A DNA stretch of 61,811 nucleotides, the filler included. It is 12 parts of 12 records of this genome, joined end to end, with 100 filler letters (N's around TTAATTAATTAA, not from the genome) between each part and the next. Parts side by side here need not be neighbours in the genome. Positions count along the whole stretch, not along the records: positions 8,319 to 18,374 come from SRR15195285_12636; 11 more parts are not named here. One strand, 5' to 3'. The notes beneath the pieces are model-generated. The model was not told the origin of the DNA. It made no database searches and saw nothing but the letters and a program-made list of their open reading frames with translations. This document shows positions 4,232 through 36,891 of the stretch, piece after piece. Each line of letters starts with the position of its first letter. Positions within the stretch are counted from its first letter, which is position 1. The position numbers and the translations under genes are program-made.

Positions 4232-4331
4232 NNNNNNNNNNNNNNNNNNNNNNNNNNNNNNNNNNNNNNNNNNNNTTAATTAATTAANNNNNNNNNNNNN
4301 NNNNNNNNNNNNNNNNNNNNNNNNNNNNNNN
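4232..4331. other. Artificial contig-joining linker (N44-TTAATTAATTAA-N44), first of 11 identical copies
   Basis: The same 100-nt spacer with stops in all six frames occurs at 4232-4331, 8219-8318, 18375-18474, 21611-21710, 25754-25853, 32219-32318, 36790-36889, 42950-43049, 47999-48098, 52357-52456 and 55658-55757. Confidence 0.99.
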
Positions 4332-9813: not shown

Positions 9814-12800
9814 ATGCCCAACTGCCAGGCTGCCGTCATCATGATGGCCGCGCTCCCGGGGCTAGCCCTCGGCCAACCAGTCACCAGGAATCCGGTGAGC
9901 CGATCCCTTCCACTTCAATTGTAGCAGTGGGACCAGCAGCACGACCGATATCGCTGATGCTAAGCCGCTTGGATACCACGCGCCGTTGTGCTGACGCGCG
10001 CCCCATCAGTACACGGGGGAGGCGATCAGCGGAATTGACTACACTGGAGGGCTCTTCACAGCGCCCAAGACCGATCATCCATCTCATGGCATGGCGCCTG
10101 TCACGGCAATTCGCGACCTCGGCGATGGCATCACGGACGGTCCGAAGAAGATGTGCTGGGGCCTGTGTGGTGGTGGGGCCAACTCTGGCATTGGGCCGTG
10201 CCGCAACCGCGACTGGGGAGAGGAACTGTGTGGTGGTCGCAGTGGGCCAGAGGAGTTCCTCGGCCGTACTTGGGTGGAGATGCTGACTGCCCAGGAGGTT
10301 CGTCTACCTTCCTGCCTTTCCACCTACTGTGATTTTGCAAAACAAGCTGACAGAGTGAGTAGCTGCGTGGCAACCAACAAACGCTCAGTGGTTGTATATG
10401 TTGCTGTGTTTACAGCTGGGCGACAGGCTCGCCTACATGGCGCCCGGCAACGGACCACTTGGTGGTGCCGCTATCCCCTGCCCGGCATCGAGCTGCCAGG
10501 CGTGGGGTATCCCGTGCGACGACTGCTTCGAGCCCCCTCAGATGGCGAAGGACAAATTGGCGCTGGCATCGGACTCGGACGTGCACGTATGCAATCGGAC
10601 TGGGTGGGAGTCGATGGATCCCACTCAGTCCCGCAGAGTTGGAGTCGTACCCATCGCTGCCACGCCACCGTCAAGCGACCCAGACGAGTACCCAAATGAT
10701 GTGGCCATCTGGCACAACCACGCCAAGCCCGGCCGCTCCGTCATCTTTGGCAGCGACCGCGGCAGGCACCAAAATCCTGGCCACATCTGGGCCTTTGGTT
10801 TGGACGGCCAGAAGCTCTACACCGTCAACGTGAGTCAGCCGTACCACGTGGACGTGGAGTATGGCTTGTCGCTCGGCGGTGTGCAGCGTGACATTGTGGT
10901 CTCGTGCGAGAGAGAGGAGCAGTACCTACGCGTGTGGAGTATAGAGTCTGACGGCACGCTCAGCCCCGTCGACGGTTGTGCGAGCGTGGATGGGGGCGAC
11001 TGCGGCCTGCCGATCTTCTCCGGGCAGGACTCTGATTCCTGCAACAATGTGCAGCTTTACAAGCGGCCAGACGGCGCAATTTTTGCCATCATCGGTCGTG
11101 ACCAGGCACGTGGGCAGTACCACTACGGCATCCGGGCGAAGGCTGGTCGCTATGACGGCGCGAGCTTCACACCTTTCGACTTCTCACAGTCCCCGTCCGA
11201 GCTGACGATAAGCTTGGATGGTGTACAGCGAGTACTCAACATCGACCAGGATATTCCAGACATGAACACGGCAGCGCAGGTTCTGCAGGACGCTGCCGAC
11301 GCTGTCATTCTCACAGCGTTCATCCGGTCCGCTGATATCCAGGGTACTGTCACCTTCGCAGCGAATGTGGACGGCTCGGGCGTGACGGTGACGGCCAACC
11401 TTCTGTACACCGACGAGAGCTGGCCTGTCACAACGACTGGACATCAGTGGCATATTCACGCTGGTAATCTCACTGGCGTCGACGAGACCCGCTGCAATTG
11501 CGACAACGACGATGACATCTCGCAGTGTGAGCAACCAGAGTGTCCTCAGTGCTATGCCTGTGGTGGGCATTACGACCCCACTGGGCTCGAGGTATCGACC
11601 CCTGATCAGGAGTATTCCTGTGACTCACAACATCCCGATGCGTGCTACGCTGGAGACCTCAGCGGAAAGTTCGGCACACTCAGCATTGCAGCCAACCCGG
11701 AAGAGGTGTCGCCACCGCCGATGGTCGATGATCTGGTCGGAGTCGATAGTTCTCTCAACCTGGGCCAACTGATTGGCCGCACTATCGTAATTCATCAAGC
11801 GAATGGCGGCACAGATCGAATCGCGTGCGGTACAATCCGCTCCGCGCTCGTGGTAGAGACGCGTGACGCAGATGTTGAGGAAGGGACTGGCGCTCATCTC
11901 AGGATCGCCTCTCAACTCGAGTCGGGCGATTCGATGGTGGACATCCCCGCATCTGCCAACTTCCAGAACAGGCATACACGCGCACTCTTTGGCGTTGGCA
12001 CAGTCACGCAGGGACAGGCAGCTGTGCAAAGCTACCGCGACGAGGTCCCCTCGATCGAGGGTTCCTACATTTGGCAGTACCAGCTGCAGGATTTTAATGG
12101 CGATGGCATCGTGGAGGCCACGAAAGTACGCCAATTTGGCACGACGCAAGCTCACGACATTGCTGTGGATGATGAGGCGGGGGTCATCTTCATCATCGGC
12201 TACACTTCGACTTTTCAGGTATGCATACGCGGGCATGGAATCAATCCTTGACTATGTTATCGTCCATGACATATCTCGGAGTCTGTCTCTTCGCATAGTG
12301 ACTACTCGACTCAGTCTTGCTGTTCCTTAGCCTGTTTCTCTGCACATGCCTTGTGCACGCCGGTCTTTTCAGGTGCCGGCCGATCCGGATGCCTATCTGA
12401 CCAGCGAAGAATCAATGCAGCACAGGGCCAAGTTTGGTGGAGAAGGAATCTTCGAGCGCTACCGATATGGCGGGTCTGTCTGGAACGCACGCGGAGAAGC
12501 GAAGCTTTCGACGGTTGACCCAGCAGGTTATGTTTTGATCGGCGACACCTACAACAACACCATCCAGGCCTTCTGCCGTAGCGACAACGACATCCCACCG
12601 CCCATCGCCGAGGCCTCCATTGACGGCAGCGATTTCTCTGGCAAGATCACTTTCACCGAAAGCCTTGACGGCGTGCAAGTGTACGCAAGTATCAAGTACG
12701 AAGGAAGTCACGATGAGCAAACGGTTGGTCACAAGTGGCATATCCACAGCAACGCAGCCGATTCCGACGACTGTGCAAGTGCCGGTGGACACTACGACCC

Positions 12801-13485
12801 CTCTGGACTCGAGCACTCCCAAGGCTACGTCTGTAGTGCCGGTCCATCTCAGGACCAGAGCGAATGCTACCTGGGTGATCTGTCTGGCAAGTTTGGGCCC
12901 ATCACTATCGGTGAGCGTGGGGAGGATTACAATCGTTATCGCCCCGCGTCACCGATCACAGGCCTAGACACCACGCTCGACGTGCGACAGCTCGTGGGTA
13001 AGTCAGTTGTAATTCACGCAGCAGATGGGGGCAGCGAACGAATAGCGTGCGCAACTATCGAGGCTGGCGTTCCAGATGCAAGTACCTTCGCGGGCACAGT
13101 CAAACTGGCTGGTGTAGTGTACAGCTCCGGGCATGAGGTGTCATCCGAAGACTTTGGCGGGGATCTGAACCAAGGCATCGCAGTGGTGATGTCAGACTAC
13201 AGTCACAATTTCCTGATTTTTAACTGGAAGGACATCGGTGCATGCCTCGACATGGAGATGTGTGGCGTCCAGCCTCTGAGTGTTGCGGCTGGCAGTGGCA
13301 AAGGAGCGAGTGGAGCGAGTGACTACGTTGGTCAGAAGAAGCCGATTTCTGGCGGAACGATCGCTGCGGGCCTTGCTCTAGTAGTCATGGTCGGAGTGGC
13401 GGCAACACGCTGGAAAGCCACGGGAGGGTCGGACAAAGGTTCTGAGTCGATTTACGCCGATGAGCCAGACCTCTCGCCGGCCTGA
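9814..13485 (+). CDS. Type-I membrane protein: signal peptide, degenerate beta-propeller phytase with two inserted Cu-only SOD domains, C-terminal TM helix (~1094 aa, 4 exons)
   Basis: Exons 9814-9894, 10010-10297, 10416-12218 and 12373-13485, all joined by phase-0 GT-AG introns. Propeller motifs: NDVAIW..SVIFGSD, HVDVEYG, LYKRPDGAIFAIIGR, YIWQYQL..ATKVRQFG, IAVDDEAG, GYVLIGD, GIAVVMSD..FNWKDI. SOD domains at ~11307-11840 and ~12604-13062 each carry HxWHIH, GGHYDP, CYxGDLSGKFG, G(R/K)(T/S)xVIH and RIAC. TM GGTIAAGLALVVMVGVAA at ~13348-13407. Confidence 0.85.
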
Positions 13486-13629: not shown

Positions 13630-16134
13630 TCAGAAGTCGAATGTTTCCTCGTGATATTCGAAGCTCGCCTCCGTCTTCGTCTGAGCGATTGCGTCTTTGA
13701 CAGACACCAGCAGCGCGCTAGGCCCACAGGACAGCACAGCGCAGCTGTCAATCAACTGGTCTGTGCACGCTTGGTCGACAGAGGCAATGATCCTAGTCAT
13801 CCTTGGCCTGCCTTTGCCAACAAACGGCTGCTCGAGCTCGATCTCTGGGTCTTTCGCGCCTCCCTGTTGAATCAGATTCATGCTGATATCGGTAGCTGGC
13901 GCCACCTCTTGCTGCCGAACGAACTTCCTCGGCAACCATCTCTCCTCCGCCAGCTGCACCCAGTCATCGGTTACTGTTAGCGCTTCAAATTGCTCGCCGT
14001 TCTTGATCGAATCGTCCGCGCGATCGTCCATGTTTGCACTCTTGCGATAGCCCACAGTGGCAGCCGTGCTCCCTCCAGCAGCCGCGTCAACCATGAACGT
14101 CTTCGCTGGATCGAAGGACTTCCCGGTAAAATAGATCCGGATGCTGCACGCTGAGTGCTGCTGCGCCTCGATGAGCTTTGGCATGTAGTGATCGATCAAA
14201 CACTGCTCACGCACTGACCAGACCACCCAGACCACCCTGGGCTGTTTTGCCGCTGCGCCACACAGAGCTCGGCCGTCTGCGTCCGCAGCAGTTGCAGCCT
14301 TCATCCGTTCCGACAATGAGTTGAGCACAGCGAACATCGGCGTGCAGCCGATCCCACCGCAGCATAATAGCACCGCGTCATAGTCGTACACCGGCACACT
14401 CAACCTCCCGTACGGGCCGTCCATTCTGACCTTCCCGCCATCCGGAAGGTGTCTACTCGGGTCAGCGCACAGACTGTGCGTCCAGTCACCCAAACTTTTC
14501 AGGACAACATTGATGTTTTTCTCCTCCGGTGCCGAGGAGACGCTGAACGGATGCCATTCGAGCGCAGCGACGGATGGAATTCGAATGAAGAAGTACTGGC
14601 CCGGCTCCTGCAGTTTGAATCGATCGGACTGAATCTGAAGCGAGAGAAATCGTGCAGAGCCGTGCTCTCCACCAAATACCTTTGTGCTCAGCACCTTCGC
14701 GTCACCGCGGAAGGAGCGCACCCCCCGAACAGCATAGTCGCCGATCATGAGTATCAGTGGAAGAACAGCTACGTCAATCTTGCCGAGCTCGAAGTGGTAA
14801 TACAATGCGACGAAGCTTGCGATGGCGCACAGAATGTGCGTCTTGTAAAACAACTCGAAGTGATTCCGGCGCACCCACTCAAGGGAGGTGATGAGTATCA
14901 GTACGAAGCAGCCCCCGGCAAGGATGCCCATGAAATTCTGCACTCGCTTTCTCTTGCCGTCAAGAAACCATGTGTGCTCATTTGCGCCGCCGGGCTCGTA
15001 AGATTGATCGCAAGCCTTTTGTTCATCAGGCGTCGAGTAATCGCAGAACGGAGAGAAGCACTCCTGCACGATAAGGTTGATCCCGACCACGTCGCGTTGT
15101 GGCGTCAAGGACCAGTCAACAAAGAAGCAGGCAGCGTGCACAATGGTCGCAATCGTTGCACTTTGCCCAAGCACTTTGTGAAACCTCAGCGCCCGTTCGA
15201 ACGGGATGCCAAATGCCGGCAGGATGAGGCTGTTCTTCGGCACCGGGATCAGCGACAATGCCACGAGATCCCCGGCCACCTGACCCATGTGCTTGCCGTA
15301 CGTCTGCAGGTGGTAAGACTGCAGTGGTTCGTCGTCGAGCGTATCCCAGGGCCAGTATCGCGCACAGACTTCCGCGCCGTCAACGGTCGAGCATTTCTGC
15401 TCGGGCAGAAACCACCTGAGGAGTAGGCAGAGCAACAGCAGCTTCTGAACCATCTCGCTGAGCGGCTCGCTCGGTCCGGTAAGCACTCGCACGAGCCTAC
15501 GCCCGGTGACAGGTAAGCAGTGCACCTTGAGCATACGCTGCGCACGGCGGCTGAGATCGTCGCGTTGGTGATCTACTACAGAGCAGCCGAACGTGGCAAG
15601 TGCCATGCACCCGAGCAACAACGCGACGCCCACAACTGCCGCCACGTCTGGACCATCGCCGTCGTTCGCGGTGGATCCGAGATACTCATGCGGATGGAAC
15701 ACAACGTCCCCGAGCTTTTCTAGCAGCGGTGGCGCTTCCTGGCACGTTTCGCTGCCATCGGTTAGGACGCGCACGTAGCACCGCGACGTGTTGTAAATTC
15801 GGACGAGCTGCGCCAGGCCCGCCACCGTGCCCGACAGCGCGCACGCGCAGCCTGCGCCCAGCATCGGTGGCCTGTGCCGATCGCCCTTCGCGGCGCGATG
15901 AGGTGGGGGCGGCTCATCGTCCGCACTGTCAAGAAGGATCAACTCTCCGGCATCAGTTGAGTTCGTATCGTGCAGCTTCTTCCTCTTGACCAACTCAAAC
16001 CTGATGAGCACAGCCGTCGTCGCGCCCACCAGCCCCGCCAGCACCGTCAGCACGTTGACGTAGAGCCCGGAGGACTCAATGTCGGCATAGCTACGGTGGT
16101 GTGCGTCCTCTGCGAGCTGCCGAACCATCACCAT
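13630..16134 (-). CDS. Ferric reductase (FRE/FRO family flavocytochrome b), single exon
   Basis: Bis-heme His pairs in RFHKVLG..IVHAAC and KTHILC..YYHFE. FAD motif EWHPFSVSS. NADPH motifs DGPYG, GGIGCTP and SCGP, with terminal EETFDF. First in-frame ATG at 16134. Confidence 0.95.
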   Translation of the reverse strand: MVMVRQLAEDAHHRSYADIESSGLYVNVLTVLAGLVGATTAVLIRFELVKRKKLHDTNSTDAGELILLDSADDEPPPPHRAAKGDRHRPPMLGAGCACALSGTVAGLAQLVRIYNTSRCYVRVLTDGSETCQEAPPLLEKLGDVVFHPHEYLGSTANDGDGPDVAAVVGVALLLGCMALATFGCSVVDHQRDDLSRRAQRMLKVHCLPVTGRRLVRVLTGPSEPLSEMVQKLLLLCLLLRWFLPEQKCSTVDGAEVCARYWPWDTLDDEPLQSYHLQTYGKHMGQVAGDLVALSLIPVPKNSLILPAFGIPFERALRFHKVLGQSATIATIVHAACFFVDWSLTPQRDVVGINLIVQECFSPFCDYSTPDEQKACDQSYEPGGANEHTWFLDGKRKRVQNFMGILAGGCFVLILITSLEWVRRNHFELFYKTHILCAIASFVALYYHFELGKIDVAVLPLILMIGDYAVRGVRSFRGDAKVLSTKVFGGEHGSARFLSLQIQSDRFKLQEPGQYFFIRIPSVAALEWHPFSVSSAPEEKNINVVLKSLGDWTHSLCADPSRHLPDGGKVRMDGPYGRLSVPVYDYDAVLLCCGGIGCTPMFAVLNSLSERMKAATAADADGRALCGAAAKQPRVVWVVWSVREQCLIDHYMPKLIEAQQHSACSIRIYFTGKSFDPAKTFMVDAAAGGSTAATVGYRKSANMDDRADDSIKNGEQFEALTVTDDWVQLAEERWLPRKFVRQQEVAPATDISMNLIQQGGAKDPEIELEQPFVGKGRPRMTRIIASVDQACTDQLIDSCAVLSCGPSALLVSVKDAIAQTKTEASFEYHEETFDF

Positions 16135-17024
16135 CACCTCACCATCACCAATAGCACTCCAGTTGGCACCGAATCCGTCCCCCGGCTAGGTCAGCGGAGA
16201 ACTCACTGAAAATCGAAGCAACGACGTGGACCACCTCGAGTCCGCTGGATTGCAATTAGGGTTGTTTTGACCCCGCTGAGCAGGGCAATTCTGAGCCAGC
16301 TGCTCGCGGTGAGCCCGGAGCTCGAGCTGCCGACGGACCGGCCGCCCGGTGCCAGCTCCTGACCACTCCCCCACCAGCTGCTCCGAATCCATCCACGTCG
16401 TGGACCGCACATTCCGAGACGATCCACATTTCCGGACTTGCCGCGGCGCCGGTTCCGCGTATGAGCAGCTTTCCTGCTTTGGGCATGCGGTTTGCGTCAT
16501 ACTGGACCGAAGATCGGCTCACGTTCTTGAGTACGGTATTCCTACTCAGAGTACGTCAGTACGAGTATCGCACATTCCGAGCTACCGCCGTACTCGTTTT
16601 ATATATTATAGTGCTACCTGTACCTGTACTGTCCTCAATTACGAGTCTACCCTTGGTCCAACGGTTGACGACGCAACTGAACCGCGAACCATTCACAGCA
16701 CAGAGAGTCGAGACTCGAGAGTACGAGAGAGCGCCATCCACGAGCCAGTTCATGCACCGGAACTTCCGCACCGACGCGCCGGAACCGCCGCGGCAAGTGC
16801 GGAAATGTGGATTCAGCCGGCTTTCGCGCGTACCCCGGGGATGTGTGGTCGCTGTTGTACCGCGCGCACATTCCGCTAGTCTGGCAAGGCTCAGTCTACC
16901 GTACCATACCGTACGACTGTCCTCGCCGACCGCCAACGCAGCCGCAAGCGCACAGCCGCAGCAACAACAGGAGCTTCTGGGGCGCCACCACCGCTACGAG
17001 TACCACACCTGCGCAAGCACCGTC
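16135..17024. promoter_or_regulatory. Divergent promoter between the ferric reductase and FEA1/ISIP2a genes, with repeated candidate cis-elements
   Basis: The two genes are head-to-head. A 27-bp inverted pair sits at 16422-16448 and 16786-16812 (26/27 identical). CGCACATTCCG occurs at 16406, 16569 and 16865. Confidence 0.7.
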
Positions 17025-18374
17025 ATGATGCTCAGCAGACTGCCTCTTCTGGCCGCCGCGCTATTTGGCGTCGTCAACGGTCAGTGCCCCGGTGGCAAGA
17101 CGGGCTACACTGACGCGACCTGCGCCATCACCCAGGATGACCGGCTCGATGCACCGATGCTGGCCATCGTGCAGGCCGTCAGCGACTTCAAGACAGCGAT
17201 CGGGGATAAATCTGAAGCCGAATTTGCTCAAGCCATGACCTTCTACAACGCCAATCTCGCGGTGCGCTTGCCCGCGCTTAGTGCGCGCTGTGCTGCTGCG
17301 TACGGCAGTGACAGCTCGGCGGCCCCACTACGACACTGTCGCTGACACTGCCCTTGGCTGCGCAGGGCCCGGTCGCGGACTCTGGCGTCCCAGGCCTCGA
17401 GGCGTACATCCAGGCCGCGGGCACCGGCAGCGGCTCCTTCGACGGCGCTGACGAGGGCAACGGCCGCAAGGAAGCGTGTGTCAAGTCCACCCAGAACAAC
17501 ATGCTCTCTGCCCTCGCCATCGTCAAAGCCACCGCGGCCGGAACTGAGGCCGATGCCGCTGCCGCAGCCCAGCTGTGGAAGGAGGCCAAGACTCTGTTCT
17601 TCGGCAGCAGCACGCTCCAGAGCATGTCACCGTCTGCCACATCCGACAAGCGGTGCAAGAATTACGACACATGCGGCGGCGGCGACCCGTCCGGAGACGC
17701 CAACACAGCATCGAACACCAATATCGCCATCTACGATGCCTTCGCCGCGGGTGAGGCCGACCCGACAACATATGCAGACAACGCCGCCATGATCTCCGCG
17801 CAAAACACCATCGTCTACATGCAGGCCACCCTGCGCTACCTGAACAAGATGGACAACGACAACGATCCGAGCCCAGTTGGCGCTGGCAGCAAGAACCAGG
17901 GCGAGGGCTGGGCTTTCTACAAGGTCGTCGCGCCGTACCTCGAGGCCGCAGATCCCGCCGGAGCCACCACGATCAACACGGCGTACGACCGCGATGTGGT
18001 AAACACGGCTACCACCAACTACTGCACCGGCCTGCCGATCGTCCTGAAGAACCTGCCATCCGGCACCACCCTCGGCGATCTGGGCACCCTGAACGAGGCC
18101 GCCGTGGATCCCACTGTTGGCGGCTGCGTCGGCCCAAGCACGGCTGGCCTGATCCAGGCCGCCGCTGCCATGAAGACCGCGTTCGACTGCGCCGACACCA
18201 CCGTCTCCAAGGCGATCTACACCACCGCCCTGACTGCTCCCCTGTACGCAATGCACGGCTCCCTGCAGTCCCAGGTCCAGGCCCTCACCGGTGCTGACGC
18301 TGGTCTCGACGCCCTGATCGTCACTGCGTTTGATGGCACTGGCTCCTTCGCTGCTGCGGCTGCTGCGGGCGCCG
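17025..18374 (+). CDS. Secreted FEA1/ISIP2a-family (phytotransferrin-like, low-iron-inducible) protein, 3'-truncated
   Basis: Signal peptide MMLSRLPLLAAALFGVVNG; intron 17262-17365. FEA1-domain motifs RKEACVK, WKEAKTLFFG, SDKRCKNYDT, YMQATLRYL and GEGWAFYKVVAP. A second repeat appears to begin near 18140 (..KAIY...LDALIVTAFDGTGSF). Codons are strongly C/G-ending. Confidence 0.8.
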
Positions 18375-18474
18375 NNNNNNNNNNNNNNNNNNNNNNNNNN
18401 NNNNNNNNNNNNNNNNNNTTAATTAATTAANNNNNNNNNNNNNNNNNNNNNNNNNNNNNNNNNNNNNNNNNNNN

Positions 18475-36308: not shown

Positions 36309-36891
36309 CCGCAGCCGAACACACCGCTGTCAGTCCAGTCCGTCTCTGCGTTGCGCGTTGGCAGCAGAGAAGGAACCGGCCGGGCCGCAAGCGCAGCGCG
36401 AGTTGCAGGCGGCAACCGACCGCCATGAGCCCGCATCCCCCTCCTCCTCGCTCAAACTACGTGGCAACTGGGCACTGGCAAAAGCAAACAGCGGCAGCCC
36501 TCGCAGAGCCAGCAGGCGGGGCAGACAAGCGCAGGAAGCAGGAGGGGAAGTGGCTCACGAGAGCGGCCCGTCCGGCGTGAGACTGCTCCCTAATTGCCCC
36601 GCGCTGCTCGAGATCGAACCCTTCCGCTTGCTCCCCCGCGCCACCGGCGGGCTCTGCGCCGCCCCCGTCGGCGTCACCCCCGCCATCGGCGTCACCCCCG
36701 CCATCGGCTCCATCCTTCAGGCCGTACGCTCCAGGATATCCGCCTCCTCACACCGCTCCAAGGCCCCCCCCCCCCCCCCCCCCCCCCCCNNNNNNNNNNN
36801 NNNNNNNNNNNNNNNNNNNNNNNNNNNNNNNNNTTAATTAATTAANNNNNNNNNNNNNNNNNNNNNNNNNNNNNNNNNNNNNNNNNNNNAT

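Follow-up and report, generated by a model that had tools for sequence, protein, structure and literature searches.

Within the window, meaning the whole stretch of 61,811 nucleotides that was analysed (filler included), positions 9814-13485 of the plus strand hold a four-exon gene of a marine microbial eukaryote, encoding a protein of 1094 aa (27+96+601+370; Table 1). The protein begins with a signal peptide, predicted from the hydrophobic core VIMMAALPGLAL in an exon that ends in ..VTRNP in phase 0, and continues with a conserved Cys-rich head, a three-part phytase-like propeller with two SOD-bearing inserts, a TM helix and a short tail. The head is the best-conserved portion of the protein, being 80% identical to the relative P0153 from the Met at 10091 onward, compared with 29-65% in other parts; its cysteines are spaced as CxxxC, Cx4C and CxxC, and it matches no Pfam family. 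The predicted membrane anchor is a single hydrophobic segment at exon-4 residues 325-343 (Kyte-Doolittle 2.07), followed by a tail that is 75% identical to that of P0155, an orthologous ORF.

Table 1. Features of the propeller-SOD gene and its convergent neighbour, in window coordinates.
Feature	Position	Strand	Basis
Exon 1, 27 aa: start codon and predicted signal peptide	9814..9894	+	sequence, hydropathy
Intron 1, 115 nt, GT..AG	9895..10009	+	position shared with metagenome contig L001
Exon 2, 96 aa: first 27 aa kept in a relative; Cys-rich head from Met at 10091	10010..10297	+	tblastn, identity
Intron 2, 118 nt, GT..AG	10298..10415	+	P0155, P0153, P0004 continuous over junction
Exon 3, 601 aa: remainder of Cys-rich head; propeller segment 1; SOD1-bearing insert 1; start of propeller segment 2	10416..12218	+	76% identity to P0155
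Propeller segment 1, phytase-like	10638..11108	+	PF02333; exon-3 residues 75-231
Insert 1, ~315 aa: linker, SOD1 (11307-11843), second linker	11109..12053	+	alignments; Sod_Cu 28.6 bits
Propeller segment 2, first part	12054..12218	+	exon-3 residues 547-601
Intron 3, 154 nt, GT..AG	12219..12372	+	RNA contig; P0155, P0153 continuous over junction
Exon 4, 370 aa	12373..13485	+	gene model
Propeller segment 2, second part, at exon 4 start	12373..12582	+	exon-4 residues 1-70; P0045 198-321 vs P0155 597-716
Insert 2: SOD2 domain	12604..13062	+	Sod_Cu 42.2 bits; predicted fold
Propeller segment 3, last blade	13084..13287	+	exon-4 residues 238-305
TM helix, then conserved 24-aa tail, stop 13483-13485	13345..13413	+	hydropathy
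Ferric-reductase-domain (FRE/NOX family) membrane flavocytochrome, convergent, 9 predicted TM	13630..16134	-	Pfam, hydropathy

The Phytase profile PF02333 matched at E 9.6e-11 with 41.7 bits against a cut-off of 21, the strong match being limited to the first ~130 of 375 profile positions. The first propeller segment is matched by 67 phytase-only homologues and aligns with the Bacillus alkaline phytase 3amr (chain 13-114 with exon-3 residues 80-183). Chain 147-197 of the same structure aligns with exon-3 residues 543-594 in the second segment, and the last blade, exon-4 residues 238-305, matches residues 325-392 of the insert-free, TM-anchored homologue P0045 (E 4.3e-12). The flanks of the first insert are separated by a median of 4 aa in the 44 phytase-only homologues that match both of them, compared with 319 aa in the query. 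Likewise, P0045 and P0155 align in three collinear pieces (45-194/126-284, 198-321/597-716 and 326-384/886-944), and P0155 carries 312 and 169 extra residues at the two sites where P0045 has 3 and 4. When P0155 is modelled with AlphaFold2, its three segments fit onto 3amr as a single body, with Z 37.2, rmsd 2.4 Å, 22% identity and 311 of 352 residues aligned (VIA-align, model range 126-948); non-phytase six-bladed propellers score Z 24.4 or less. This fold comparison applies to the orthologue, which is 76% and 72% identical to the two large exons, rather than to the spliced protein of the window, and the model has a mean pLDDT of 63.6, with 65-80 in the SOD parts. Because of the contrast between 4 and 319 aa, the collinearity with P0045 and the one-body superposition, the alignments and the model show insertion of the SOD domains into a single propeller rather than a tandem arrangement. 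The sequence-only reading, which had proposed two SOD domains inserted into a membrane-anchored propeller, is thus borne out: its segment and domain boundaries agree with ours to within a few bases, and the six-bladed propeller that it expected from three segments holds on the orthologue.

Only one natural protein has been described in which a Cu/Zn-SOD domain occurs together with a six-bladed beta-propeller, DrSOD of Deinococcus radiodurans (PMC12362111), a structural match (PDB 9m58/9m59). In that soluble protein, however, a bimetallic bacterial Cu/Zn-SOD and an SGL lactonase propeller are fused in tandem; it contains no insertion, its propeller belongs to another family, and it has no reductase partner. 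In the present protein, a whole enzyme domain has been inserted twice in propeller loops.

The two SOD domains are 38% identical to each other. The second reaches 42.2 bits with the Sod_Cu profile PF00080, and the first 28.6 bits, just below the cut-off of 28.9; Sod_Cu matches often end at about profile position 110 of 133. In phmmer searches of the PDB with a threshold of E<=1, the second domain matched 95 Cu/Zn-SOD sequences, the best of them at 7.5e-5, and the first matched none. The AlphaFold model of the window's second domain (pLDDT 75.3, pTM 0.72) retrieved Cu/Zn-SOD-fold chains in all 50 best-listed VIA matches (Z 9.2-10.4, rmsd ~3-3.6 Å); SOD5 was not among these 50, the scores being tied, and the fold search does not separate subclasses. 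The SOD parts of the P0155 model matched SOD1 chains in Foldseek with probability 1.0 and TMt 0.6-0.74. Motifs of the first domain are HQWHIH, CGGHYDP, ACYAGDLSGKFG and IVIHQANGGTDRIACG, and those of the second are HKWHIH, AGGHYDP, ECYLGDLSGKFG and VVIHAADGGSERIACA. The first domain has an additional Cys/Asp-rich loop at ~11493-11561.

Across 12 aligned domains, H39 and H56 do not vary, and conservation is at least 90% for H41 and H131; from the alignment coordinates, we take these four to correspond to His46, 48, 63 and 120 of SOD1. All four copper ligands are present in both window domains, as the sequence-only reading had noted together with the Arg and Cys. R139 and D85 are invariant or nearly so, and the cysteines of the predicted disulfide bond are conserved at the sequence level (C50 invariant, C142 at least 90%). 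Seven residues separate the last copper-binding His from the catalytic Arg in both domains, in line with the proposed loss of the electrostatic loop and a very short loop VII. The claim that both extra Zn-loop histidines are missing stands for the first domain, with Val and Tyr at the Zn-only positions, and fails for the second, which has His and Tyr. This His (LEH, in the alignment to 3ce1) occupies the first Zn-loop position and is replaced by Thr in P0155 and Ala in P0153; because only 2 of the 12 aligned domains carry it, it is not a conserved ligand.

Cu-only SODs are described as having the signature pair E110/D113 (PMC13017621, available text). This pair is incomplete in both window domains, where the Asp is retained and Glu110 is replaced with Tyr, the substitution noticed earlier; all four domains of P0155 and P0153 have the same Tyr. 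A regular-expression count at this position across the homologues gave Glu in 160 and Tyr in 30 of 222 motif matches. The assignment to the Cu-only class is therefore one by sequence features: the fold, the copper histidines, the Cys pair, the loss of the Zn site and the short loop VII agree with the signature proposed for these domains, whereas Glu110 does not, and copper-only content and activity are predictions. Like the fungal and oomycete Cu-only SODs of the Candida albicans SOD5 type, the domains have the Cu/Zn-SOD barrel, four Cu-His, the Cys pair, the D113-equivalent Asp and a loop VII/electrostatic loop that is very short, and they are predicted to be extracellular and tethered to the membrane; they differ in the Tyr, in a further Cys pair that is conserved in what was the Zn loop, in lying within a propeller rather than standing alone, and in having a TM helix instead of GPI as the anchor.

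Among the database proteins most closely related to the SOD domains, many consist of repeats, with as many as 10 Sod_Cu stretches. CSRP similarly places several SOD domains of the Cu-only type on a single extracellular polypeptide, a location that is predicted here. Its repeats, however, are arranged head to tail with linkers of 5-9 residues (PMC13017621, available text), whereas the layout of 4-12 tandem repeats is absent from the window's protein, in which the two domains sit in loops ~255 residues apart, with a linker and propeller blades between them. SOD modules of the Tyr type also occur in fusions with MFS transporters and with a Na/H exchanger, as detected by Pfam on homologues, so that this variant of the second sphere of Cu-only SODs recurs on other membrane proteins.

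The main functional clue, overlooked in the sequence-only reading, is the convergent reductase gene and its fusion to the propeller-SOD protein in relatives. The reductase matches PF01794 (1.4e-19), PF08022 (1.2e-14) and PF08030 (1.5e-11), and among solved structures it is closest to human NOX2 (E 1e-27). It is 45% identical (314/700) to residues 944-1687 of P0153, a protein of 1687 aa that contains Phytase, two Sod_Cu, Ferric_reduct, FAD_binding_8 and NAD_binding_6 domains in this order and is 52% identical to the window's protein across the whole of exon 3. The fused form is represented by five full-length members of 1686-1694 aa on five contigs; a sixth member has an in-frame retained intron, which indicates that these contigs are genomic. 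In the fused and the split forms alike, hydropathy predicts three extra TM helices that separate the ectodomain from the six-helix core, and these would place the ectodomain opposite the side of the NAD(P)H domain.

Paired histidines in two helices of the reductase align with the haem ligands H101/H115 and H209/H222 of NOX2, the spacing of the second pair being one residue wider than in NOX2. According to Zhang et al. (PMC3591440, available text), His-101, His-119 and Thr-178, together with Gly-179, distinguish ROS-making NOX enzymes from metalloreductases. Two of these four positions are kept in the reductase (His-101 and Gly-179), His-119 being Ala or Phe and Thr-178 being Met, in an alignment whose TM3 piece is weak by itself (-2.5 bits) and is anchored by the haem His only. 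Pfam searches found no EF-hand family in the reductase or in P0153.

By analogy with DUOX or with the Fre8/Sod5 pair, the tethered ectodomain may dismutate superoxide made at the outer face of the reductase, a reading to which we give about an even chance. The gene product would be a type-I cell-surface protein whose ectodomain combines a bacterial-type six-bladed propeller with two Cu-only-type SODs, and it would act jointly with the flavocytochrome encoded tail to tail with it, perhaps in physical contact. The reductase would pass electrons from NAD(P)H in the cytosol along two haems to the outer face; O2 could there be converted to superoxide, as product or leak, and the tethered, open-site Cu centres of the two SODs would turn superoxide locally into H2O2 and O2. 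In the fused relative, both parts would operate within one polypeptide of DUOX-like order, with the ectodomain followed by the extra TM helices and the six-helix reductase core. The architecture, the four-His site, the presence of a partner, the fusion and the topology all speak for this reading. On the other side are the two NOX positions missing from the reductase and the wider spacing of its second His pair, the Tyr in place of Glu110, the score of the first SOD domain under the Pfam cut-off and its want of PDB matches, and the use of an orthologue with modest pLDDT for the fold model. The occurrence of Tyr-type SODs on transporters also suggests that the module may be a general surface module, not specific to reductases.

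Both comparisons have limits. DUOX, described as having an extracellular domain and extra TM (PMC3591440, available text), resembles the arrangement proposed here in that extra TM helices connect a superoxide-processing ectodomain with a NOX-type core; its ectodomain is a peroxidase homologue, and it has EF-hands and the NOX signature, whereas the present system has a propeller with SODs, no EF-hands and neither His-119 nor Thr-178. Fre8 of Candida albicans has been reported as the partner of the extracellular Cu-only Sod5, yielding H2O2 (PMC5728582, available text), and the likeness lies in the pairing of a surface reductase-family enzyme with an extracellular Cu-only SOD; unlike in the window and its relatives, the same text reports neither fusion nor adjacency for Fre8 and Sod5.

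Apart from the window's own ORF, none of the best 150 representatives had a propeller and a SOD match in one protein, and Pfam on 99 of these 150 found neither a protein with both Phytase and Sod_Cu nor any Ferric_reduct domain (0/18, 0/14 and 0/67). The family surfaced only in length-directed searches (two matches and two matches), and a metagenome scan added two short contigs, of 2047 and 1199 nt, that have no flanking genes. We found no account of this architecture in the literature searched; automatic cataloguing in InterPro/CDART is possible.

More tentatively, the family may represent an undescribed surface redox machine of marine protists, in which a propeller with two Cu-only-type SODs is wired to a reductase in cis (1687 aa) or in trans, as an analogue of DUOX with SOD in place of the peroxidase. 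If so, no natural fusion of a reductase with SOD would have come before it. The Cu-only class is given as known only from fungi and oomycetes in the available text of PMC13017621; open-site SODs of this type, in the Tyr-for-Glu variant, would then reach beyond fungi, oomycetes and animals. The partnership of NOX/FRE enzymes with extracellular SODs (Fre8/Sod5; animal NOX with EC-SOD) has so far been a matter of co-expression and genetics, and a natural fusion, along with a second lineage in which the parts are split but adjacent, would supply direct evidence of it at the genome level. Such a compact system would allow tests of superoxide channelling at the membrane, and would bear on the ways in which marine plankton make or control superoxide and H2O2 outside the cell, and perhaps on Fe/Cu acquisition.

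Because the reductase lacks the NOX signature, a role in metal acquisition is also possible, though we hold it to be rather doubtful. The neighbour would then be a true ferric or cupric reductase for reductive Fe or Cu uptake, and the ectodomain would serve uptake by presenting Cu(II) or another metal complex, by accepting electrons at its Cu sites, or by shielding the uptake site from superoxide. The FRE-like rather than NOX-like character of the reductase at two of the four positions of the published test (PMC3591440, available text) fits this possibility, as do the conserved Cys-rich head and the description of Cu-only SODs as loading copper from outside and holding it weakly (PMC13017621, available text). 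However, the conserved Arg and the full four-His site look like an apparatus for superoxide catalysis, and the 20 large ORFs scanned included no gene for a permease, a multicopper oxidase or CTR. A further lead towards metal acquisition was a secreted neighbour at 17031-18340, which scored 0.91 in the Atlas search as a Fea1-type low-iron-inducible protein. Its identity as Fea1/phytotransferrin was not upheld, since this score was the sole support and Pfam did not confirm it: PF07692 was found neither in the ORF, nor in any of the 14 homologues scanned (E<=1), nor in the precomputed Pfam annotation of 18 homologues.

It is improbable that the protein is a cell-surface alkaline phytase scavenging phosphorus, with the SODs as a stabilising or protective add-on and the reductase adjacent by accident. 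The PF02333 score above cut-off and the far better fit of the model to Bacillus phytases than to other six-bladed propellers (Z 37 vs 24 or less) are what such a function would predict, and the motifs VDDE.G, VR.F and NF....W from the list of beta-propeller phytase (BPP) motifs in PMC4017775 (available text) are recognisable. Yet the BPP signatures DA[ATE]DDPA[ILV]W and NN[VI]D[ILV]R[YDQ] of the same text are absent: the window has EYPNDVAIW and YHVDVEY, and P0155 and P0153 are alike. The three family members all show ND[VA]A[IV]W in place of DDPA[ILV]W and YHVD in place of NN[VI]D, whereas P0045 and 33-34 aligned phytase-only homologues retain the signature motifs. For this comparison, only the N-terminal columns of the MAFFT alignment (A1) were used, the middle of the phytase-only rows being misplaced onto the first SOD domain. 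In a by-eye alignment, the counterpart of GEH[LF]TAD[IV]EG is GEGIFERYRYG, with basic in place of acidic residues. Because the two published motifs are altered, 'phytase' is used here, on sequence and model grounds, as a statement of fold and family only. Relative to the Bacillus enzymes (3amr/1poo/1qlg), the protein shares PF02333 by score and, judging from the orthologue model, the six-bladed fold, but differs in its two large insertions, Cys-rich head, TM anchor and changed signatures. The fusion to a reductase on five contigs also speaks against chance adjacency.

That the gene model is an artefact, assembled from separate genes or from a pseudogene, is very improbable indeed, given that two orthologous ORFs cover all the segments at 72-76% (P0155) and 52-58% (P0153) identity and run without introns across the junctions of introns 2 and 3, and that all three introns are GT..AG and in phase. 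The four exons and the 1094-aa length put forward earlier were reproduced, and the ORFs that span both exon junctions uphold the view of one protein rather than separate genes. The spliced protein was absent from the protein collections searched, in which only the exon-3 ORF (P0003) was found. The RNA check of the introns gave a divided result. At intron 3, a contig from run X2 lacks precisely the 154 nt bounded by GT..AG, its short side covering only 23 nt; at intron 1, an RNA-library contig (X3, record 5) is unspliced over 9866-10016 and counts against that intron. The seven RNA runs contain only 5-8% of the sampled words, and the four that were aligned yielded scattered pieces, so that stretches without RNA cover are uninformative for the gene model. 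The N-terminus of P0159 is identical to exon 2 at 26 of 38 positions (tblastn, E 4e-15). In the metagenome contig L001, an ATG-initiated exon of 39 codons with a basic n-region and a hydrophobic core ends in ..ATKNP and is followed by a 67-nt GT..AG intron and an exon opening with YTGQAISG, a junction that corresponds to the exon 1/2 junction of the window's gene and is thus kept in this relative.

The product of the four-exon gene matches the Pfam families Phytase (PF02333; E = 9.6e-11, 41.7 bits against a cut-off of 21) and, twice, Sod_Cu (PF00080; 42.2 bits, and 28.6 bits against a cut-off of 28.9). The sequence-only reading took this for a propeller interrupted by two SOD domains. Exon-3 residues 80-183 and 543-594 match, collinearly, residues 13-114 and 147-197 of the chain of a Bacillus alkaline phytase (3amr; PDB search), with a spacing about 330 residues greater in the query. 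Exon 3 was searched against 1.84 billion representatives and gave 544 matches at E<=1e-3; the best 150 of these 544 (phmmer) sort into 67 propeller-only and 83 SOD-only proteins, the latter including the window's own ORF. Between the segments flanking the first insert, the median gap is 4 residues in those phytase-only proteins that match on both sides (44 among the best 150 of 544), against 319 in the query. P0045, an insert-free homolog of 480 aa with a C-terminal TM helix of its own and no SOD domain, aligns with P0155, an orthologous ORF of the split form, over three blocks that follow the same order (41%, 33% and 46% identical; E = 3e-27, 7e-6 and 1e-11, respectively), and P0155 has 312 and 169 extra residues at the sites where P0045 has 3 and 4. 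The gaps in the homologs, the P0045 alignment and the fold superposition described below uphold the interrupted propeller: the SOD domains are true insertions.

Positions of the gene parts and neighboring features along the window
Feature	Position	Strand	Remark
Exon 1	9814-9894	+	
Exon 2	10010-10297	+	
Exon 3	10416-12218	+	
Exon 4	12373-13485	+	
Cys-rich head	10091-10297 and 10416-10625		N-terminal
SOD1 extra loop	about 11493-11561		
Stalk-plus-first-TM copy	13288-13413	+	match to P0153
Stalk-plus-first-TM copy	13630-16185	-	residues 1-60; match to P0153
Reductase gene	13630-16134	-	
FixS-like segment	15529-15636	-	reductase residues 184-219
Secreted neighbor	17031-18340	+	

A fold model was made for P0155 from a 48-row alignment, to stand in for the window's own spliced protein (mean pLDDT 63.6, pTM 0.51); pLDDT is near 90 in the propeller, 65-80 in the SOD parts, and below 50 in the N-terminal 110 residues and the linkers. 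The 3amr structure superposes on model range 126-948 with a Z of 37.2 and an rmsd of 2.4 Å (311 of 352 residues aligned; VIA-align), the best Z among non-phytase propellers being 24.4. Foldseek likewise placed 3amr at the top (E = 3.1e-8, TMt 0.60); SOD chains came next, with a probability of 1.0. By these superposition and Foldseek results, the three propeller segments form, in the model, one six-bladed propeller; this is the AlphaFold and Foldseek check suggested earlier, run here on the ortholog.

The two SOD domains are 38% identical to each other. A 12-row domain alignment shows full or at least 90% conservation of the four Cu-binding His, both disulfide Cys, the Arg and the Asp that is retained, and an additional Cys pair flanks the former Zn loop; only 7 residues lead from His to Arg, which makes for a very short loop VII. 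The E110 position of the E110/D113 signature of Cu-only SODs (as given in the available portion of PMC13017621) is Tyr in both window domains and in all four domains of P0155 and of P0153, a relative fused to a reductase, in agreement with the Tyr already pointed out in place of the usual Glu. Of the 12 aligned domains, 8 have Tyr at this position, 2 have Phe and 2 have Glu, and a rough regex count of motif matches among stored hits gives Glu in 160 and Tyr in 30 of 222. The absence of the Zn-loop His, also claimed from the sequence, does not hold fully for the window protein: at the first of the Zn-only ligand positions, its SOD2 carries a His that P0155 and P0153 lack. Modeled on its own (pLDDT 75.3, pTM 0.72), SOD2 finds solely chains of the Cu/Zn-SOD fold among its best 50 matches (Z 9.2-10.4), a search that does not separate Cu-only from Cu/Zn types. 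In SOD1, an additional loop, about 23 residues long and rich in Cys and Asp, separates the second Cu-His from the disulfide Cys; it is modeled with low confidence, kept in P0155 and P0153, and missing from SOD2.

Among other SOD relatives (P0106, P0134, P0147, P0041, P0013, P0006 and P0150), several have Tyr or Phe at the Glu110 position, and the partners joined to these relatives are MFS transporters, a Na/H exchanger, EF-hands, or a TM helix with SH3; in P0134, the SOD follows the MFS domain and possibly lies inside it. Others are 3-10-fold SOD repeat proteins. The Tyr/Phe-type module, present on MFS transporters, a Na/H exchanger and an EF-hand protein, may recur as an ectodomain among membrane proteins of protists.

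The propeller-SOD gene lies tail-to-tail with a reductase gene, with 144 nt between the stop codons. The reductase comprises Ferric_reduct, FAD_binding_8 and NAD_binding_6 domains, and among solved structures human NOX2 is its best match (E = 1e-27). A search limited to longer proteins yielded P0153 (1687 aa), which is 52% identical across the whole of exon 3 and has the domain order Phytase, two Sod_Cu stretches, Ferric_reduct, FAD, NAD. Its 90%-identity cluster includes five full-length members (1686-1694 aa) on five contigs, and because one cluster member, P0159, carries an in-frame retained intron, these contigs are genomic. The window reductase ORF is 45% identical (314/700) to residues 944-1687 of P0153, whose stalk and first TM (about residues 944-1005) are matched by both window proteins. 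From these matches, the two window genes appear to correspond to the halves of the fused form, with the stalk and TM kept in both, and the duplicated segment hints at the route of fusion or fission. Because P0155 terminates in the tail seen in the window protein, the split form occurs in at least two organisms. By hydropathy, nine TM segments precede the FAD domain in both fused and split reductases, three of them extra, and we infer that these three put the ectodomain opposite the NAD(P)H domain. A marginal FixS Pfam match in the reductase (23.5 bits against a cut-off of 23.1) falls on one predicted TM helix and probably arises by chance from the hydrophobicity of this segment.

Complete with its Arg, the Cu site would provide the apparatus for superoxide catalysis, and it is tied to a transmembrane electron carrier, fused in one lineage and adjacent in another. 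This association suggests that the substrate would be superoxide from the outer heme of the carrier, which the ectodomain would turn into H2O2 and O2 for signaling or defense, or for self-protection. The layout would be the same as that of DUOX (per the accessible part of PMC3591440), and the cooperation the same as proposed for Fre8 and Sod5 (likewise from part of PMC5728582). By this analogy, we give about an even chance to the ectodomain dismutating superoxide made at the outer face of the reductase.

A role in metal uptake is a serious rival, possible if tentative, on account of the reductase itself. Of the four positions proposed to mark ROS-making NOX enzymes, the reductase lacks His-119 and Thr-178 and keeps His-101 and Gly-179. 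Relative to NOX2, the spacing within its second His pair is larger by one residue, as in the FRE pattern. The TM3 piece of the alignment with NOX2 is weak and held by the heme His alone.

A pure phytase role is less likely than metal uptake, and we consider it improbable. Among the matches listed, the nearest uninterrupted relatives are largely bacterial-type BPPs (beta-propeller phytases); the long ones have an unbroken strong PF02333 match in all 14 cases and a type-IX secretion tail in 5 of 14. The two published BPP signature motifs, which include DDPA[ILV]W and NN[VI]D (in the portion of PMC4017775 at hand), read ND[VA]A[IV]W and YHVD in the propeller-SOD family, and other motifs listed in the same portion (VDDE.G, VR.F and NF....W) are discernible in the window protein. 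DDPA[ILV]W and NN[VI]D are kept in 33-34 aligned phytase-only rows and, as the canonical DDPAIW and NNVD, in P0045, which, TM-anchored and insert-free, appears to represent the ancestral scaffold. For the window propeller, 'phytase' denotes a family and fold assignment, and phytate hydrolysis is putative.

A gene-model artefact, again less likely than metal uptake, is very improbable. The window DNA is eukaryotic nuclear (G+C 50-62%) and also contains JmjC/ARID/PHD, cNMP-binding, Na/H-exchanger and GH3 genes. Two long plus-strand open frames (10359-12251 and 12331-13485) and two short pieces upstream are joined by three GT..AG introns, all in phase, into a 1094-aa product, the same exon set as proposed in the sequence-only reading. 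P0155 (1017 aa) is 76% identical (455/602) to exon 3 and 72% (269/374) to exon 4 and, like P0153, runs unbroken across the exon 2/3 and exon 3/4 junctions. At intron 3, an RNA-library contig omits exactly 154 nt with GT..AG ends; its short side of only 23 nt is weak alone. Exon 1 was initially in doubt because the ORFs of three orthologs start at a Met within exon 2. P0159 extends 5' of this Met and there shares 26 of 38 residues with the window (tblastn E = 4e-15), and L001, a metagenome contig with a relative of the 5' part of the gene, has a 39-codon exon that begins at an ATG, encodes a basic start and a hydrophobic core, and ends in ..ATKNP, followed by a 67-nt GT..AG intron and an exon opening with YTGQAISG; the window junction of exons 1 and 2 is ..VTRNP/YTGEAISG. 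Thus, exon 1 and its predicted signal peptide are supported by comparison. Against the splicing of exon 1, one RNA-library contig is unspliced across intron 1; it may represent pre-mRNA or DNA.

In one oligo-dT RNA run, two contigs of 151 nt lie at the 5' part of the gene (9866-10174), one of them the contig unspliced over intron 1, and the run does not cover the gene 3' of these positions; possible sources are pre-mRNA, carried-over DNA or a distinct transcript of the 5' part. The L001 relative (258-324 and about 423-555) shares intron 1 with the window gene, has a second intron (after ..MVPVT) where the window is continuous, and changes frame near the equivalent of the exon 2/3 junction.

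In the available part of their review, Peterson and Culotta (2026, PMC13017621) assign open-site Cu-only SODs to fungi and oomycetes and CSRP to animals and Capsaspora; a term search found no mention of phytase, propeller or NADPH oxidase. The only SOD-propeller combination described is DrSOD, in which a bimetallic SOD of bacterial type and a propeller of the SGL lactonase family are fused in tandem (accessible portion of PMC12362111), whereas here the SODs are inserted. Our searches of the literature returned no description of SOD domains inside a phytase-type propeller or of a reductase-SOD fusion.

The N-terminal head contains 8 Cys (spacings CxxxC, Cx4C and CxxC) and is the most conserved part of the protein: it is 80% identical to its counterpart in the distant fused P0153, whereas other parts reach 29-65%. 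The head matches no Pfam family and has a pLDDT of 27-43 in the P0155 model; it may serve as a metal site or for docking.

Divergent from the reductase gene lies a gene whose product has a signal-peptide-like start and 18 marine homologs, all unnamed and with no Pfam domains. Atlas places this protein closest to Fea1-type low-iron-inducible proteins (0.91, 206/256 features), a likeness for which Atlas is the one source and which HMM searches did not confirm. Pairs of 44-base N-runs with 12 bases between them occur at 11 places (e.g., 4232-4331, 18375-18474 and 36790-36889), every 3-6 kb, and appear to reflect masking or scaffolding and not biology; one such pair interrupts the gene at 17031-18474.
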